Below, one piece after another: positions 1-12,711 of a stretch of 13,971 nt of DNA. The stretch is from UHGV virus genome UHGV-1842250; one strand, written 5' to 3'. The stretch comes from a virus. Below the pieces are notes generated by a model, which was given only the letters and a program-made list of their open reading frames with translations, was not told where the DNA came from and ran no database searches. The position numbers and the translations under genes were made by a program. Position 1 is the stretch's first letter. Every line of letters begins with the position of its first letter.

Positions 1-46
1 TTAACAGCTAACTCATAGCAAATCATTCCTATTCAGATACCAACTC

Positions 47-2111: not shown

Positions 2112-2758
2112 GCTGCACGCTCCCGCCCCTGGTTGTCTATTGGTGACACCGGAGCATTGCTGAATGCATTTGTTAATCCGCCAATATCCAACGCGTATCC
2201 AGGGTGTAGTTGCACTGCCGGGTCTTCGCACTGATTACCCCAAACATCGAAGCCATGAGACGTCTGGCGGGCGAACAGTTCAATGCGAGAAACATCGCCT
2301 AACAATTGCACAAGTTTTTCACGAACGACATCTGGTTTTCTTGAATGCTCAAGCCGCGGTGCGGTAAATGACTGAACGATCCCTGCATTAATGCGTGGAG
2401 GTAGTTTTCCCTTTACTGCAAACAGGCAATCTTCACTATTGGCGCGAGTCATGTGTCCCATACCCATAACCAGTTTATCTGGTTGTCGACTACCACATTT
2501 TATCCACGTGAAGCCCTTCATCGTCATCAGACGAAATCCCCAGGCTTCAACAACTTTTAGTGCTTCGAGTGGTTGTGTTGGCACCCACCACATGGCCAAC
2601 AGACAGTTTTCAGCGGTCAAATCCCACACAGGAAGGCGGCAGATATCCAGCACACTCATAACTGGATATTTAAAACCGGCACCGCGATTACCATCTGCGG
2701 CTTTGTCCCGGTATACCCAGGGTGGATCTGCATAGATTAGTGTGTATTTCTTAGTCAT
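2108..2758 (-). CDS. MT-A70-family DNA N6-adenine methyltransferase
   Basis: N-terminus [16 protein letters not shown] contains the DPPW catalytic motif of MT-A70 / phage Dam-like methyltransferases. Start ATG at 2758 is preceded by a G-rich SD (GGGGTGG); the stop TGA overlaps the phosphatase ATG as ATGA. Confidence 0.88.
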
Positions 2759-3050
2759 AAACCACCCCACAACATCCTATGCCGCTATAGTCGCCACGGC
2801 GAAGGCCGTTACCTTTTGTGATACATTGGTCCCTGCGAACCGCGATCCTTGCACGTTCAACATCACCAGAAGCAACATCCATACACTGAAGCCAAAGGTG
2901 AGCGGCAATGCGGAATTGCCCTTTTTTCTCTCTTTCAATCGCGCGTTTTTCGATCTCTATCGCCGCAGGAGTAACGGCGACAATCTTTGAAGGGCTGCGC
3001 ATTGAAACCTTGTTCATGTGATATTTTTCAAGTCGGCTTAACTTTCTCAC
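2751..3050 (-). CDS. Hypothetical protein, function unknown
   Basis: Only sizeable ORF filling the 400-bp gap between the excisionase and methyltransferase genes on the operon strand. GTG at 3050 is preceded by GAGGG; alternative ATG starts at 3017 and 3002. Its 3' end overlaps the methyltransferase start by 8 nt. I recognise no family. Confidence 0.45.
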   Translation of the reverse strand: MRKLSRLEKYHMNKVSMRSPSKIVAVTPAAIEIEKRAIEREKKGQFRIAAHLWLQCMDVASGDVERARIAVRRDQCITKGNGLRRGDYSGIGCCGVVYD

Positions 3051-3457: not shown

Positions 3458-4399
3458 TTACATAGATGTTTCGTTTAATTCTTCTCGACGAACGCTGTAA
3501 ACGTCGGTGGCTTTTGCCAGCAGTTCGTCATCATCTGAAAGTTTTTGTGCAATGTATTTGTAAGCCTTATCCAGTTCGGAGACAGTGCTGTAATTCATCG
3601 CTGCGCTGGTAAAGGCCATCAGCATTTCTTCTGGATCACGGCTATCCGATTTACGCGTTTGCTCATCAGGCTTTTTCGCTGGTTTAGCGTTGATCAGACT
3701 GTTCATTCCCGCAGCAGTGGTCGTTTGCGGAGTAATGTCTCGCTCAACGCGCGGTGCCGTTTCCTGTAATTCGTCTGGGGTGTAGACGCCCATGATTACG
3801 TCAGGACAGTGCAGGCGAGACCAGCGTTTTGTCGCAAGGTATGCGAGTTGTTGTTTCGGATCACTGGCCCAAAGTGTGGAGTTTCTTACCTGTGCTTGAG
3901 ACAGCATTAACTCAAGCACTCGAGGTTGATCCTCGCCCTTCATGGTTGCCCATACGCGAACACCGCAGCCTTCTTCGTCTTTTAGAGTCCAGCCTGGTGC
4001 GATATATGGATTGCCGTTTTTGGATGTTTTCTCAACAAACTTACCGATCACGCGTTCCCACGGCCCAAACCACTCGTAGTTGATGCGATCTTTTGTTGGC
4101 GACATCGTTGAGATAACTGCGTTTACTAATTGGGCTTCATAACCTAGCGTGCCGTTCACAACATGGGTTTTCTGAGCCACGGCAAACGGGTTCATTCCCC
4201 ACTGCGCAGCCTGCATTGCCACGGCCATGCAATCAGCTGGTTTCCCGGCGAGGTGCGCCGGTACCGTTACGCGGCTTTGCGCCATTACCTCGGCGAATTT
4301 CATCAGTTGGTTCAAGCCGTCTGGGCTGAAAATAGTTGCAGCAGTTCCAGCGATTGCTGTGTCTACTGGTGCGTTGATGTTTGCGATGTCGTTGCTCAT
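3458..4399 (-). CDS. bet: Single-strand annealing protein, RecT/Red-beta (Bet) family
   Basis: 313 aa. The segment ETAPRVERDITPQ resembles the lambda Bet region ERQPERDITPV, and the gene sits directly downstream of an exonuclease gene as in the lambda exo-bet pair. Start ATG at 4399 has AGGA upstream and overlaps the exonuclease stop (ATGA). Confidence 0.85.
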   Translation of the reverse strand: MSNDIANINAPVDTAIAGTAATIFSPDGLNQLMKFAEVMAQSRVTVPAHLAGKPADCMAVAMQAAQWGMNPFAVAQKTHVVNGTLGYEAQLVNAVISTMSPTKDRINYEWFGPWERVIGKFVEKTSKNGNPYIAPGWTLKDEEGCGVRVWATMKGEDQPRVLELMLSQAQVRNSTLWASDPKQQLAYLATKRWSRLHCPDVIMGVYTPDELQETAPRVERDITPQTTTAAGMNSLINAKPAKKPDEQTRKSDSRDPEEMLMAFTSAAMNYSTVSELDKAYKYIAQKLSDDDELLAKATDVYSVRREELNETSM

Positions 4400-4926
4400 A
4401 TGTACATATCCTGTTTGCGTGCCCACTCAGGGCGTTTAATGATTTCCACACCGCCCCATTCATCATTGATGCGGCATTCGTGATAGGTATTCAGATCCCG
4501 GCGGAACAGAGCGTGCCCGGCATCGACATCCTGCGCATCCAGCTCGAACACGCGTACCGGATACCGACCACAATCAATGCTTTCGCTCACGGCAAGAAAG
4601 AAAAAACCATGCGGCTGACCAGTAACCCTCATTGCGCCTTCGCGGTACATTGCGTCCTGCACGTGGTAGCGGAATTCCTCGATGTGGCGTGCAAAACGGT
4701 CCATATCTGCAACCTTTTTCACGTCGACGATCACGTTGTGCTCGTTCAGCCATTTGTCTGGACGAATTCGGCACAACTCACCCGTCTCTTCATCGTTCCA
4801 GTACATTGATGCTTCGCAGTAACCAGGTGCTTCCAACATCCAGCGTGCCGCCGGATGAGCCATTGCGCTATCACGCATAAGCTCCAGTTTCCGCCACTGC
4901 TCGGCATCAAGTACCGTAATCACCAT
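4396..4926 (-). CDS. PD-(D/E)xK exonuclease, C-terminal part (gene interrupted by a frameshift)
   Basis: Contains the nuclease core motifs RIRPD ... VIVDVKKV. This reading frame is open from 5130 to 4396, but its first ~55 codons overlap the N-terminal fragment's frame and look non-coding; 4926 is the first internal ATG. The partner fragment is 4937..5212. Confidence 0.7.
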   Translation of the reverse strand: MVITVLDAEQWRKLELMRDSAMAHPAARWMLEAPGYCEASMYWNDEETGELCRIRPDKWLNEHNVIVDVKKVADMDRFARHIEEFRYHVQDAMYREGAMRVTGQPHGFFFLAVSESIDCGRYPVRVFELDAQDVDAGHALFRRDLNTYHECRINDEWGGVEIIKRPEWARKQDMYI

Positions 4927-4936
4927 ATCCGCCACA

Positions 4937-5212
4937 TCACGAAGCCTCTTCGTCAGCTTTACCTTGTTTCGTCCGACGATCGAATTTCGGTGAAACAATG
5001 AAGCGTTTGTCGAACTCTCCAGGCTCCAGAAGCAGACAGTGCAATGCGGTTCCCATATCCAGTGCAGACTTTTTCTCTTCGTCTTCTGGTGCTGCCTGAA
5101 CCCATTTAAGAAGCGCCGGATTCTTGGCAACCATGTCCAGTTGCGACTTACTCACGCCGTCACCGGCGTGGTAGTCTTCGTTGCTGATGTCGAAATAAAT
5201 TCCCGGTTTCAT
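4937..5212 (-). CDS. PD-(D/E)xK exonuclease, N-terminal part (ends at a premature stop after a probable frameshift)
   Basis: 91 aa beginning MKPGIYFDISNEDYHAGDGVSKSQL ... GTALHCLLLEPGEFDKRF, which looks like the N-terminal region of phage Cas4/RecB-like exonucleases. Good SD (GAGGGA) before the ATG at 5212. The frame stops at 4937 while a second frame continues the nuclease domain. Confidence 0.7.
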   Translation of the reverse strand: MKPGIYFDISNEDYHAGDGVSKSQLDMVAKNPALLKWVQAAPEDEEKKSALDMGTALHCLLLEPGEFDKRFIVSPKFDRRTKQGKADEEAS

Positions 5213-5682: not shown

Positions 5683-5697
5683 TTACCGTTGAGGTAA
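5683..5697. promoter_or_regulatory. Operator site, perfect palindrome TTACCGTTGAGGTAA, promoter-proximal in the leftward (PL-like) promoter
   Basis: Exact TTACC-N5-GGTAA. It abuts the candidate -10 of the leftward promoter, and an extra TTACC half-site sits at 5670-5674. Confidence 0.6.
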
Positions 5698-5725
5698 TAA
5701 TTATGCGTATATGGTTTGGTGTCAA
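5697..5725 (-). promoter_or_regulatory. Candidate leftward early promoter (PL analogue)
   Basis: On the minus strand: perfect -35 TTGACA (5725..5720), 17-bp spacer, -10 AATTAT (5702..5697). Flanked by operator sites at 5745-5759 and 5683-5697, the same layout as the promoter at 8778-8806. Confidence 0.5.
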
Positions 5726-5744: not shown

Positions 5745-5759
5745 TTACCCGTTAGGTAA
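5745..5759. promoter_or_regulatory. Operator site, perfect palindrome TTACCCGTTAGGTAA, promoter-distal in the leftward promoter
   Basis: Exact TTACC-N5-GGTAA, centred 62 bp from the site at 5683-5697. Confidence 0.6.
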
Positions 5760-5816: not shown

Positions 5817-6401
5817 TTATTGTTTGTTTTTTTCGTTCTGGTTGATGACAAATTCAATGTAACTTTCGATCTTTGCCTTCTCTGTTTCAGGTAACAATGC
5901 GTAGCGCGAGCGGTCATAGTTGATAGTTGCAGGGTCATGCGGATGAATCAGTAGTTCATATCCGTGACGCCCGAATGCAGATGCAACATTCTCCAGGGTG
6001 GAAATGGAAACGCTGACCTCATTGTTTAACAGGCGGCTTATTGTCACCTGGGCGACGCCGGATGCGCGGTGAAGTTTTCCCTGAGTTGAAAGGTCGCGGC
6101 TTTCACTCATCCAGCGTTCCAGGTTGTGAGCTGCCAGCTGACCAATGTCGCTTGGGCCGACAGGCTGAAAACCTTCCTGAGAAAGCGAGCGATCGATATC
6201 AAGCCAGTTACGGGGTTTATTGGCGGCAGCTTCAATTTTTCGCGCAACCTGGTCGCCGATAACTTTCTTGCCAAGAGCCCAGCGGTTTACCAGATTTGCC
6301 TGAGTTCCAAGTTTTTCTGCCATCCGCGTCTGAACACCATTGAATTCACGGTCGATCAAGTCGTTGAGATTTTGCCTGCGGACGTCCTGGATACTTTTCA
6401 T
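5817..6401 (-). CDS. Phage repressor (cI analogue) with two HTH domains and no recognisable LexA/S24 autocleavage domain
   Basis: 194 aa, divergent from the Cro-like gene across an operator-rich spacer. HTH-like segments QTRMAEKLGTQANLVNRW and ASGVAQVTISRLLNNEVSVSISTLENVA. No S24 peptidase serine-lysine dyad or Ala-Gly cleavage context seen. No SD before the ATG, so the transcript may be leaderless. Confidence 0.8.
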   Translation of the reverse strand: MKSIQDVRRQNLNDLIDREFNGVQTRMAEKLGTQANLVNRWALGKKVIGDQVARKIEAAANKPRNWLDIDRSLSQEGFQPVGPSDIGQLAAHNLERWMSESRDLSTQGKLHRASGVAQVTISRLLNNEVSVSISTLENVASAFGRHGYELLIHPHDPATINYDRSRYALLPETEKAKIESYIEFVINQNEKNKQ

Positions 6402-6456: not shown

Positions 6457-6519
6457 TTACCCAACAGGTAAATGCACCTCATAGGTAACTATCCTTGATT
6501 TTTGTTACCTTATGGGTGA
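6457..6519. promoter_or_regulatory. Immunity-region operator cluster of three sites between the repressor and cro-like genes, with divergent promoters
   Basis: Sites at 6457-6471 (TTACCCAACAGGTAA, perfect), 6474-6488 (GCACCTCATAGGTAA) and 6505-6519 (TTACCTTATGGGTGA). Candidate rightward promoter: -35 TTGATT (6494-6499) or TTGTTA (6502-6507), -10 TATTAT (6525-6530), overlapping the third site. Confidence 0.6.
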
Positions 6520-6555
6520 ATATTTATTATCTGAAATAAATATCAGGCAATAGCT

Positions 6556-6841: not shown

Positions 6842-6856
6842 GTACCTCAAAGGTAA
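6842..6856. promoter_or_regulatory. Operator-like site GTACCTCAAAGGTAA between the terminator and the replication genes
   Basis: 9 of 10 match to TTACC-N5-GGTAA, with the ACCTCA core shared with the sites at 5683, 6474 and 8806. An AT-rich stretch with weak promoter-like hexamers follows (6870-6920). Confidence 0.4.
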
Positions 6857-6934
6857 TAAAAAACCAAATATGGTTGATCAAATTTTCCAATTGTGCAAAA
6901 TAGCCAATATCAATAACAAAAAGGGGCGGAAAAA

Positions 6935-8730: not shown

Positions 8731-8743
8731 TACGTCTTGATAA

Positions 8744-8758
8744 TTACCTGCTAGGTAA
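8744..8758. promoter_or_regulatory. Operator site, perfect palindrome TTACCTGCTAGGTAA, promoter-distal in the promoter for the accessory block
   Basis: Exact TTACC-N5-GGTAA, centred 62 bp from the site at 8806-8820, the same spacing as the pair at the leftward promoter. Confidence 0.6.
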
Positions 8759-8777
8759 TAAAATGTTCTAAGATCTA

Positions 8778-8806
8778 TTGATTTCGTGTCTTATGTGGTT
8801 TTTAAT
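8778..8806 (+). promoter_or_regulatory. Candidate sigma70 promoter for the accessory block, duplicated PL-type architecture
   Basis: -35 TTGATT (8778-8783), 17-bp spacer, -10 TTTAAT (8801-8806). The flanking sequence CTATTGA and the operator spacing match the leftward promoter at 5697-5725. Confidence 0.55.
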
Positions 8807-8820
8807 TACCTCAGGGGTAA
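8806..8820. promoter_or_regulatory. Operator site, perfect palindrome TTACCTCAGGGGTAA, overlapping the -10, start region and SD of the gene at 8824
   Basis: Exact TTACC-N5-GGTAA. Its GGGG also serves as the ribosome-binding site for the ATG at 8824. Confidence 0.6.
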
Positions 8821-9229: not shown

Positions 9230-9724
9230 ATGGAAAGTAATATCAAAGGGTTAGTTGCCGCCGGGCATGAGATGGCTTCGGAACTGAAAGCAGAATGTGG
9301 TGCCGTTGATATGCGCAGTGTGGCAAAGCTGATCAGCGATTTGGCAGCGCAACTGGAAGTGCAACTGGTGCGTGCTAATGCGCTGGCCGAAGACCACCAG
9401 AGAGCGATTGAGTCAATTAAGCAGGCTGATTCGGCTGTTAAGTTGGCACACGAGAAGTTTTCGGCGCTGGCGGCGGAGAATGCGGGGCTGAACAAGTTCA
9501 TCAAAGATGATTGCTGGATTTGGGATGACAAAAGTGAAGAGTATTTCGACGCTGCTGACTGTATGCCAGAAACCCCAGCCACCGACGCCTCCCTTGCTGA
9601 AGTGCGGGCGCAGGGTGTGGAAGCATTCGCCAATAGCCTGAAGGTTGCCGGTGGTCATGAACATCCATATTCAGCGGTAGCCAACGAGTTCGCCGACCAG
9701 CTTCGCAAAGGAGGCAACCAGTGA
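9230..9724 (+). CDS. Hypothetical coiled-coil protein, possibly ead/Ea22-like
   Basis: 164 aa, SD GAGGG before the ATG, predicted helical N-terminus. The family assignment is tentative recall, not verified. Confidence 0.55.
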   Translation: MESNIKGLVAAGHEMASELKAECGAVDMRSVAKLISDLAAQLEVQLVRANALAEDHQRAIESIKQADSAVKLAHEKFSALAAENAGLNKFIKDDCWIWDDKSEEYFDAADCMPETPATDASLAEVRAQGVEAFANSLKVAGGHEHPYSAVANEFADQLRKGGNQ

Positions 9725-11391: not shown

Positions 11392-11665
11392 CCTGCAACT
11401 TATCCTCAAAGGTGAATACTTCGATGCCATGATTCGCGGAGAGAAAACGGAAGAGTATCGCCTGTGTAATGACTACTGGAATAAGCGAATTATGTTCCGG
11501 GAGTATGACCGCCTGATTATCACAAAGGGATATCCGAAGCGCGACGATTCCAGCCGTAGAATTGATGTTCCGTATGACGGATATGAAATCAAGACAATCA
11601 CACATCCGCACTTCGGAGATAAACCGGTAAAGGTGTTCGCGATAAAGGTAAATATTGATGGCTAA
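11384..11665 (+). CDS. ASCH/DUF3850-like PUA-fold domain protein
   Basis: GTG start at 11384 with a perfect SD (AGGAGG, 6-nt spacing), overlapping the upstream stop. N-terminus LQLILKGEYFDAMIRGEKTEEYR matches the usual ASCH opening. Confidence 0.6.
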   Translation: MANLQLILKGEYFDAMIRGEKTEEYRLCNDYWNKRIMFREYDRLIITKGYPKRDDSSRRIDVPYDGYEIKTITHPHFGDKPVKVFAIKVNIDG

Positions 11666-11996
11666 ATCAGCAGCAGAGCGCAAAGCCGCTCAGAGAGCCA
11701 GACAAGCTGCATCTGGTGTGCGTAAGCTGGAGATTGTGCTTGATGCTCAGGAAATTGAAATGCTGGAGCGTAACTGTGCCACGCGTCGCCCCGGGCGTGC
11801 GCCTTACGAATTTGGTGAGTATATAGCGTTACTGATCCGCCAGGATGATGCACGCGTGCACGGGCGTATAAAATCGATCAGCAGAACACGTTGCGGTAAG
11901 TGCGGCGAGAGAGTTCCAGTTAATTCATGTCCGTGTAATGGTGACTCACAATGCTGGGTGACTAAAGGCTGGCATGAAACGAAATTAATAGTGTGA
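11658..11996 (+). CDS. Basic N-terminal / Zn-ribbon C-terminal small protein, candidate late-gene regulator
   Basis: 112 aa. Basic helical N-terminus (ERKAAQRARQAASGVRKLEIVLDAQEIEMLERN) and C-terminal CGKCGERVPVNSCPCNG. Last gene before the pre-terminase terminator. The regulator assignment is positional inference only. Confidence 0.55.
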   Translation: MAKSAAERKAAQRARQAASGVRKLEIVLDAQEIEMLERNCATRRPGRAPYEFGEYIALLIRQDDARVHGRIKSISRTRCGKCGERVPVNSCPCNGDSQCWVTKGWHETKLIV

Positions 11997-12004
11997 CATG
12001 TCAC
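11993..12004. promoter_or_regulatory. 12-bp perfect palindrome GTGACATGTCAC overlapping the stop codon of the preceding gene
   Basis: Perfect dyad lying about 40 bp upstream of the terminator at 12046-12071. Could be a protein-binding site. Confidence 0.3.
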
Positions 12005-12045
12005 GAGTAGATTATGCATGATGAATTTGACGGGTTTTGAATACT

Positions 12046-12071
12046 GCCGCCAACTATGGCGGCTTTATTTT
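12046..12071 (+). terminator. Strong rho-independent terminator between the early/accessory genes and the terminase genes
   Basis: 7-bp GC-rich stem GCCGCCA (12046-12052) / TGGCGGC (12057-12063), 4-nt loop ACTA, then TTTATTTT. Confidence 0.7.
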
Positions 12072-12082
12072 GCATGGTACTA

Positions 12083-12115
12083 TTACCACAACGGTAACTA
12101 TTACCACGGTGGTTA
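12083..12115. promoter_or_regulatory. Tandem operator-like sites immediately upstream of the terminase small-subunit gene
   Basis: Perfect TTACCACAACGGTAA (12083-12097) followed 18 bp later by TTACCACGGTGGTTA (12101-12115). Half-sites chain as GGTA-cta-TTACC-N5-GGTAA-cta-TTACC-N5-GGTTA, echoing GGTAACTATCC at 6485-6495. No convincing sigma70 -35/-10 pair nearby. Confidence 0.5.
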
Positions 12116-12711
12116 TGATGCCTGCTGAACCTAAAACCTATAAACGCAAATCAACGCAATTTAAGCCACTAACAGCAATGCAGGAGGCTTATTGCCAGTC
12201 ATACATCAAAACGCCTGAAAACCAGACTCAGGCAGCGATTAACGCAGGATTCTCCCCAAATACAGCGGCAGTTAAAGCCAGTGTCATGATGCGCGATGAA
12301 CGCATTCAAAAACGGATTGCCGAGTTGATGGAGGAGCGCAACAAACGAATGCGCGTCAGTGCTGATTACGTTCTCATGCGCCTGGTGGAGATCGACCAGA
12401 TGGACGTGATCGACATCCTCAACGACGATGGGAGCCTTAAACCAATCCGTGAGTGGCCGAAAATCTGGCGCACTACGCTTAGTGGCTTTGATCTGTCATC
12501 GACCATCATGAACATGAACGAGGATTCGATAGAGACAATCCTCAAAAAAATTAAATGGCCTGACAAGGTGAAGAACCTTGAGCTGATTGGTAAGCATGTT
12601 GATGTCAACGCGTTCAAAGAACGTCTGGATGTTAATGTGAATGTGACAATTGCTGATCGCATAGCAGCAGCCAGGAAGCGACTCAAAGAACGTCAGGATG
12701 GTAATCAGTGA
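12115..12711 (+). CDS. terS: Terminase small subunit
   Basis: Resembles phage small terminase subunits (AYCQSYIKTPENQTQAAINAGFSP...AAVKASVMMRDERIQKRIAEL) and sits directly upstream of, and overlapping, the large-subunit gene. Start taken as ATG 12115 (or 12118); the track's TTG at 12037 would run through the terminator and operator sites. Confidence 0.82.
   Translation: MMPAEPKTYKRKSTQFKPLTAMQEAYCQSYIKTPENQTQAAINAGFSPNTAAVKASVMMRDERIQKRIAELMEERNKRMRVSADYVLMRLVEIDQMDVIDILNDDGSLKPIREWPKIWRTTLSGFDLSSTIMNMNEDSIETILKKIKWPDKVKNLELIGKHVDVNAFKERLDVNVNVTIADRIAAARKRLKERQDGNQ

Follow-up and report, generated by a model that had tools for sequence, protein, structure and literature searches.

Signals at the terS Boundary of a Uetakevirus Prophage and a Probable Repressor-Gated Promoter for Its Packaging Genes

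Results

Genes and Signals between the Early-Right Operon and terS

The DNA analysed here is a 13,971-nucleotide (nt) stretch, the virus genome UHGV-1842250, which at its full length is referred to below as the window. Megablast identified it as a Uetakevirus prophage (epsilon15/phiV10-like temperate podophage), with 96–98% identity over 60–80% of the window to vB_EcoP_ZX5, vB_EcoP_PAS61, TL-2011b, and phiV10. Positions 11993–12711 mark the boundary at which the early-right operon gives way to the terS–terL packaging operon of a phage of the epsilon15/phiV10 type, and the signals that precede the small terminase gene terS at this boundary are the subject of this work. The last gene of the early-right operon (11658–11996, plus strand) encodes a 112-amino acid (aa) protein of the phiV10 gp55/epsilon15 gp49 family (phrog_536), and its TGA stop codon (11994–11996) is held within a perfect 12-bp palindrome, GTGACATGTCAC, at 11993–12004. 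Downstream of it lie the intrinsic terminator of the operon (12046–12071, plus strand; stem GCCGCC/GGCGGC, loop AACTAT, tail TTTATTTT), an extended −10 element, TGgTACTAT, on the plus strand (12075–12083; TG at 12075–12076 and hexamer TACTAT at 12078–12083), and two operators: O1 (TTACCACAACGGTAA, 12083–12097), which is a perfect match to TTACC-N5-GGTAA, and O2 (TTACCACGGTGGTTA, 12101–12115), which has one mismatch to this motif and is placed 18 bp from O1. The packaging operon comes next, with terS on the plus strand (12115–12711; Terminase_2 family, Pfam PF03592 at 1e-29; 100% identical to phiV10 terS) and terL, which follows it from 12708. The palindrome, the terminator, and the two sites of the TTACC-N5-GGTAA type had been described in an earlier note made from the sequence alone, and all four were confirmed. 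Of 5426 complete E. coli genomes, 503 (~9%) contain the 301 bp around this boundary at ≥90% identity.

The terminator was picked up by the terminator scan and appears in both the minimum free energy and the centroid RNA folds, with the stem of 6–7 GC pairs and the T-run directly behind it (TTTATTTT) that characterize intrinsic (Rho-independent) terminators. The Rfam search gave nothing above threshold, its sole match being rseX (27 bits versus a gathering score of 50), which was rejected as a chance hit driven by the terminator hairpin.

As for the beginning of terS, the plausible start is the ATG at 12115 or the one at 12118, behind the Shine–Dalgarno (SD) sequence GGTGG (12108–12112), and not the TTG at 12037, from which the mechanically defined open reading frame (ORF) spans the terminator, the promoter, and the operators. 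The ATG start is annotated in epsilon15 and Tyrion, and the over-long ORF from the equivalent of TTG 12037 in phiV10 and PAS61; the long form in these two public records is probably a misannotation, and the over-extended start carried by several public records is corrected here. Both the SD sequence and the first ATG of terS are overlapped by O2. A tandem 10-bp repeat (ATAAACGCAA/ATCAACGCAA), largely conserved in epsilon15 and Tyrion, was also observed inside the 5′ end of terS, at 12140–12159; it may only reflect the coding of the basic N-terminus of the protein (KRKSTQ), or may belong to a pac signal.

A Conserved Extended −10 Promoter in Front of terS

The earlier note had seen no convincing sigma70 promoter before terS, and a consensus scan also missed it, because such a scan requires a −35 hexamer and there is none here. 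This claim has to be withdrawn, as a conserved extended −10 element, TGgTACTAT, begins three bases after the terminator. It shows the TG at −15/−14 and the T−12, A−11, and T−7 of extended −10 sigma70 promoters, and the place of its −35 is occupied by the 3′ arm of the terminator stem, with no match to TTGACA.

Its conservation was followed along 80 bp upstream of terS in 12 aligned sequences from at least nine host species, these being the window itself, epsilon15 and Tyrion, together with nine prophages from other genera (Pseudocitrobacter, Citrobacter, Erwinia, Klebsiella, Scandinavium, Superficieibacter, Kluyvera, and Pseudescherichia). In all 12 of them, TG-n-TA-s-TAT is fused to the invariant TTACC...GGTAA half-sites of O1. 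Seven of the nine positions of the extended −10 block are invariant, with the TG, T−12, A−11, A−8, and T−7 never changing, and the variable positions are the base after the TG, the third base of the hexamer, and the operator spacer, those within the promoter being the ones that matter least in extended −10 promoters. The terminator is kept in 10 of the 12 sequences and is missing in L005 and L007, which have an additional gene at this place; despite the unrelated sequence upstream and the lack of a terminator, both retain the promoter block. O2 is kept in the relatives as TTACy-N5-GGTwA, with its single mismatch falling in one half-site or the other according to the lineage, in the phiV10-type sequence the right one (GGTtA) and not the left one (TTACt). 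Adjacent operators 17 bp apart are also found in the OR region of epsilon15.

From these positions, transcription is predicted to start near A12090, giving a 25-nt leader, and we infer that the span of O1 on this promoter would be about −7 to +8, a classical position for occlusion. Another sigma70-like sequence, GTGACA-18-CATGAT at 11993–12022, was not adopted, as it is not conserved in the relatives and its transcript would run directly into the terminator.

The Operator Motif across the Genome and the Repressor Rep

The left part of the window contains, in this order, int, the leftward early genes (recET, methylase, PerC-like, and AlpA-like), the repressor gene, and a cro-like gene, and the right part the replication genes (DnaT-like and lambda P-like), a variable “nin-like” set, the 112-aa gene, terS, and terL. 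Allowing one mismatch at most, TTACC-N5-GGTAA occurs at 10 sites in the window, versus 0.22 expected, and none of 200 shuffled sequences reached 10. The complete genome of phiV10 has 14 sites (0.64 expected), and those of epsilon15 and Tyrion 15 each, at places matching those in phiV10. A retrieval by terS homology yielded 84 loci, 13 of which also encode a homologue of the repressor Rep, whereas 69 do not. The exact motif was found 95 times in the 307 kb of Rep-positive loci (3.1 per 10 kb) versus four times in the 1.26 Mb of Rep-negative ones (0.03 per 10 kb), which share only a distant terS.

Apart from O1 and O2, the sites of the window lie around its other transcription units. One pair (5683–5697 and 5745–5759, 62 bp apart) flanks the leftward early promoter, TTGACA-17-AATTAT on the minus strand, and another one (6457–6471 and 6505–6519) is located between rep and the cro-like gene, its second site being inside the rightward promoter at 6502–6530. 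A third pair (8744–8820, with sites at 8744 and 8806, 62 bp apart) belongs to an internal early-right promoter; the first of these sites is inside TTGATA-16-TAAAAT (8737–8764), and the second overlaps the SD sequence of a DUF1064 gene. Single operator-like sites are found at 6842–6856, directly after the terminator behind the cro-like gene, and at 136–150, upstream of int and downstream of a terminator at 47–70, in this case syntenic in phiV10, epsilon15, and Tyrion. Overlap with sigma70-like promoters was found at PL, PR, and the promoter at 8737.

Additional sites in phiV10 head the portal/structural operon (3252), the gene of a Bro-type antirepressor (20497), the tail-fibre gene (20877), and the lysis cassette (24692), and the phiV10 sites are intergenic with respect to the annotation and head each transcription unit. 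Each of the late units has an operator-linked head of its own, with terminators between the units. The RefSeq record of epsilon15 (NC_004775.2) includes curated “protein_bind: repressor” features at 12..27, 2931, 19895, 32479, 32554, 32616, and 35906; all seven coincide with hits of the motif, and the one at 12..27 is the homologue of O1. An operator before terS is thus already predicted for epsilon15, and the layout of the terS head described here is mostly ordinary.

The 62-bp spacing (~6 helical turns) of the pairs 5683/5745 and 8744/8806 was observed to be exact in three phages (L002, L003, and L004). Such a distance would fit one repressor tetramer bridging the two sites through a DNA loop; the sites of the terS pair are 18 bp apart.

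The candidate ligand of these sites is Rep, the prophage repressor, encoded on the minus strand at 5817–6401. Pfam detects two helix-turn-helix (HTH) domains in it, HTH_3 and another one at the N-terminus, without any S24 peptidase domain, and the protein matches the SPC32H repressor (PDB 5D50) over its full length at 4e-42. An epsilon15-type Rep regulon is distinguished by a two-HTH homologue of epsilon15 gp38/SPC32H Rep and by an excess of palindromic sites, found in the immunity region as well as ahead of other units, and both are present here; Rep is presumed to bind all the TTACC-N5-GGTAA sites. When the identical Rep was overexpressed in ZX5, free phage was abolished and the lytic cycle blocked, with decreases of 99.99% in the endolysin mRNA and 99.97% in the holin mRNA (PMC9782041). 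The idea of a heteroimmune covariation between repressor and operator was dropped, as Rep homologues of 41–100% identity all keep the TTACC-N5-GGTAA core.

A second motif, which approximates the palindrome AACCATATATGGTT (with CATATGTGGTT as a variant), was also observed to recur, syntenic in phiV10, epsilon15, and Tyrion. In the window, it is found at 6866–6879 (AACCAAATATGGTT), 5704–5716, and about 8791–8801, and in L002 at 3308, 20921, 24739, and 35116. At the heads of the portal, tail-fibre, and lysis units, it follows the Rep operator at a distance of 29–41 nt and precedes, by exactly 7 nt, a −10-like hexamer that has no good −35. It may be recognised by another regulator, the cro-like protein or else an activator.

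Search for Q, Ogr/Delta, and Lysis Genes

The Pfam scan of 20 window proteins detected no Q, N, Ogr/Delta, holin, or lysozyme domain. None of these 20 proteins matched the lambda-type Q families PF03589, PF06530, or PF06323, in agreement with the earlier note, which had found no Q-like protein. The ORFs tested between the replication genes and terS likewise gave no Pfam match to a Q-type antiterminator, Ogr/Delta, holin, or endolysin domain.

The lack of lysis genes between replication and packaging, which the same note had pointed out as a departure from lambda, was borne out as an absence but not as an oddity. In phiV10, the holin, endolysin, and Rz/Rz1 genes are found at 25203–26609, as the last late unit, adjoining attP/int, which is their usual place in Uetakevirus. 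As the late region of the genus finishes with the lysis genes, the “missing” cassette reflects its normal layout, and it is terS that directly follows the promoter described above, with no lysis cassette immediately downstream of it.

The 12-bp Palindrome and the 112-aa Protein

The genomes of phiV10, epsilon15, and Tyrion each contain the palindrome GTGACATGTCAC three times, at syntenic places and always beside a terminator, with two of the three copies falling outside the window. The first copy holds the stop codon of the 112-aa gene, the second is 3–4 nt from a bidirectional terminator between terL and a convergent gene, and the third precedes the terminator of the structural operon by 1–2 nt. 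All of them are exact (L002, 2262 and 19493; L003, 2142, 19517, and 39612; L004, 2702, 20377, and 41755) except the copy at the junction of the phiV10 record, GTGACATGTTAC. The nine prophages from other genera show this same arrangement.

The last codon of the 112-aa gene varies (Val, Leu, Met, or Ala) yet always ends in G, which keeps the palindrome, and a stop codon within a palindrome recurs as GTGACGTGTCAC in a Pseudomonas prophage (34% identical homologue) and as GTGACAGGTCAC in a metagenomic phage (35%). The sequence GTGACNNGTCAC was counted 32 times in 364 kb of loci positive for the 112-aa protein versus twice in 1.26 Mb of negative loci, a comparison that overstates independence, as many of the positive loci are related. 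The distant relative L085 has GTGACNNGTCAC directly before terS and, in addition, some 170 bp ahead of the holin gene.

In the relatives with an extra gene at the boundary, a near-consensus LexA box (e.g., TACTGTATGTATATACAGTT) was observed overlapping a TTGACT-17-TATACT promoter that starts 6 nt after the palindrome (L005, about 9560–9600; L006, about 9620–9650; L007, about 9560–9600; L012, about 1150–1175). These four would carry an SOS-controlled gene, possibly an antirepressor, inserted between the 112-aa gene and terS.

The 112-aa protein is labelled as a transcriptional regulator in phrog_536 and had no Pfam or NCBIfam match, the Ogr_Delta zinc finger (PF04606) included. Its family comprises 152 clusters at 50% identity (E ≤ 1e-3), with conserved residues that include C40, C79, C82, C91, C93, C99, and H106, and relatives were found in other temperate phages at the same position, the end of the early genes. 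The AlphaFold model obtained with 58 diverse homologues (predicted local distance difference test, pLDDT, 90.8) has helices at 5–19, 30–42, 52–75, and 100–108 and a Cys knuckle at 79–99; an earlier AF2 run with 19 close homologues gave a pLDDT of 56 and was set aside. The core of the model resembles a ribbon-helix-helix (RHH) fold, to which a C-terminal Cys cluster (C79, C82, C91, C93, C99, and H106) is added, and the protein is probably a dimeric DNA-binding one. Foldseek of the model returned nothing significant in the PDB or among viral models except a fragment of its own family.

Compared with the PDB, the family profile gave non-significant similarities of the C-terminal half to TraR (E 0.026) and YbiI (E 0.036), which correspond to a shared CxxCGxxlP...G...C signature, the second CxxC pair being absent in the 112-aa protein. 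A kinship with TraR/DksA was kept as a lead only, given an E value of ~0.03 and the absence of TraR among the listed fold-search matches. An identity as Q or Ogr/Delta was rejected, as neither sequence nor fold supported it and no Q structure appeared among the PDB matches. In addition, a 45% identical homologue was observed in a lambdoid-type phage (L086, 6853–7623 and 10001–10339) that encodes a Pfam Phage_antiter_Q protein, and no GTGACNNGTCAC was found near this homologue.

The palindrome is probably the site of a dimeric protein, and binding by the 112-aa protein would be the simplest reading; its likely DNA target is GTGACATGTCAC rather than the operator-like sites.

Other Features of the Window

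Two more observations concern the left part of the window. The sequence at its beginning (1–60, aatcattcctattcag) matches the published attP core of phiV10/epsilon15/ZX5 (reverse complement of attgagtgggaatgatt) only partly, which suggests that the window begins at the prophage end or carries a variant att site. Furthermore, two overlapping ORFs on the minus strand, 4937–5212 and 4396–5130, match consecutive parts of one PDDEXK/DUF3799 exonuclease profile. In phiV10, the equivalent of 4396–5212 is annotated as a single RecE–RecT fusion, and the two-ORF state could mean that the gene is frameshifted or split here.

Discussion

The analysis described above points to the terS boundary as an insulated, repressor-gated promoter, in which a terminator is followed by an extended −10 promoter lying under Rep operators, a reading to which we assign a probability of roughly 70%. 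The terminator at 12046–12071 would stop the early-right transcripts short of terS, and the packaging transcript would start near 12090 from the extended −10 promoter at 12075–12083. In the lysogen, Rep bound to O1 (−7 to +8) and to O2, on the ribosome-binding site, would shut the promoter directly. Upon induction, an antirepressor would take Rep off all of the roughly 14 operators, and every unit would fire from its own promoter: PL, PR/PRM, the two internal early promoters, int, packaging, portal/structural, antirepressor, tail fibre, and lysis. As the same operator heads every unit, the removal of Rep would open all of them at once, with no need of a Q-type cascade. The earlier note had proposed, among other options, that the late genes are controlled directly through the shared operator, and this is now the best reading, with the motif at the head of every unit and conserved before terS in the 12 relatives.

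Several points weigh against this interpretation. With no −35 and a hexamer, TACTAT, that matches in only four of six positions, the promoter may be weak or need help. The conservation of O2 could partly reflect the ribosome-binding site that it overlaps, and the terS head is devoid of the second motif found at three other late heads, which hints at further regulators. In addition, the expression data from ZX5 do not separate direct from indirect repression; that study mapped no operators (PMC9782041). Finally, a simultaneous release of all the units leaves the timing of the late genes unset in this model.

The first of these points is the basis for the strongest of the alternatives, which we nevertheless regard as unlikely: that a weak promoter without a −35 needs a phage-encoded activator, either the RHH/Zn protein of 11658–11996, which the earlier note had already put forward, or the PerC-like protein (2751–3050, minus strand), with the Rep sites serving only for silencing in the lysogen. 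The terminator stem does sit where a −35 should be, the early genes end with the gp55-family gene, whose palindrome is about 90 bp upstream of the predicted start. The presence of GTGACNNGTCAC before terS and the holin gene in L085, the weak C-terminal profile similarity to TraR, which binds RNA polymerase (E 0.026), and the presence in the window of a gene for a PerC-family activator could be read in the same direction. However, it is established that extended −10 promoters need neither a −35 nor an activator, and in L005, L006, L007, and L012, the terS promoter is unchanged with the palindrome about 400 bp away from it, on the other side of another gene. Moreover, the other two palindromes of each genome lie in convergent gaps and not before promoters, relatives of gp55 coexist with a true Q in L086, and the match to TraR is non-significant and was not accompanied by TraR among the listed fold-search matches.

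A less probable alternative is that the late genes are read by early-right transcripts that pass the terminator through an unrecognised antiterminator, with the palindrome as its loading site and a minor role for the TTACC sites. In the direction of transcription, the palindrome is always just upstream of, or beside, terminators, and the T-tract of the one before terS is interrupted (TTTATTTT). The window also encodes an AlpA-family protein, and some AlpA proteins act as antiterminators, but this gene adjoins int in the integration/excision module, as excisionases do. No N, Q, or put-like element was found, nor any Rfam match above threshold, and an operator-linked promoter at each unit would be redundant if transcripts arrived from upstream. 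Furthermore, the terS promoter block is kept in L005 and L007, which lack the terminator and the palindrome at that place.

The least probable option, that the tandem repeats (ACTATTACCAC ×2, 12079–12107) are not operators but small-terminase packaging signals of pac type, as in SPP1-type phages, would agree with the assignment of terS to the Terminase_2 (SPP1/SF6 G1P) family, in which pac lies around the 5′ end of the small terminase gene, and with public linear records of Uetakevirus beginning in this interval, but pac (or cos) was rejected as the main explanation, as pac should be unique and these repeats are two copies of a motif present at 12–13 other places per genome, including the immunity region, while the record starts differ (after the gp55 stop in phiV10 and after the terminator in epsilon15) and look like annotators’ choices. 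The repeats could have a dual role as operator and pac; a 2025 paper on epsilon15 packaging mentions neither pac nor headful packaging.

With the repressor-gated promoter as the preferred reading, the boundary can be compared with known systems. The closest is the Rep/Ant switch of the epsilon15-like phages (epsilon15, SPC32H, phiV10, and vB_EcoP_ZX5), which belong to the same genus and share the gene order of the window, a Rep with two HTH domains and no cleavage domain, and the operator places, including that before terS, which in epsilon15 is a curated “repressor” feature; nothing essential differs. Lambda and P22, in which Q acts at PR′–qut ahead of the lysis cassette and the terminase genes, also have a terminator-guarded boundary between early-right and morphogenesis genes, with a small DNA-binding protein encoded immediately upstream of it. 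Unlike them, the window has neither a Q-family protein nor a lysis cassette at the terS boundary, and the late region consists of four or more units, each having its own promoter and an operator for the repressor. The lambda CI repressor does not bind the lambda late promoter, in contrast to what is proposed here for Rep.

Direct silencing of a whole prophage by one repressor acting at many early and late sites is known from the stoperators bound by gp71 of mycobacteriophage L5, to which the spread of the Rep sites over early and late regions is comparable. The stoperators are asymmetric, orientation-dependent, located inside transcribed regions, and block elongation, whereas the sites described here are palindromic, lie on or beside promoters, and are often paired at 62 bp or 17–18 bp. 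The 112-aa protein, which had been suspected of switching on late genes, resembles the Ogr/B zinc-finger late activators of P2/186 in being a small, Cys-rich product of an early or middle gene. The Cys spacing is CxxC-x8-CxC-x5-C in the 112-aa protein versus CX2C-X22-CX4C in Ogr/Delta, and inspection of the sequence upstream of terS revealed no TGT-N12-ACA element of the P2/186 type.

The extended −10 promoter, the overlap between O2 and the SD sequence, and the palindrome family were not found annotated in the public records examined. Three details are new, namely the extended −10 promoter with its conservation, an O2 that overlaps the ribosome-binding site, and the association between the palindrome and the RHH protein, of which the last alone could have a wider interest: the pairing of both at operon boundaries is the only potentially new biology. 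In E. coli, the RHH-containing protein MatP binds matS (GTGACRNYGTCAC). The half-sites of the palindrome equal those of matS, with a spacer one base shorter. In this context, we propose tentatively, and with low confidence, that the 112-aa protein is a sequence-specific binder of GTGAC-N2-GTCAC whose sites at operon ends form an operon-boundary control, for example as a terminator modulated by the protein, as an antiterminator hand-off by which the early-to-late transition is set, or else as an organiser of phage DNA similar to MatP/matS. If true, the palindrome and the 112-aa protein would be a new regulator/site pair and a new kind of phage element, extended across several temperate phage groups.

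In conclusion, a common prophage family, present in ~9% of the complete E. coli genomes, would run its packaging genes from a promoter held by the repressor and not from a lambda-style antitermination cascade. Such a repressor-gated layout would help to predict the behaviour of these prophages upon induction and to engineer reporter phages of the phiV10 type.

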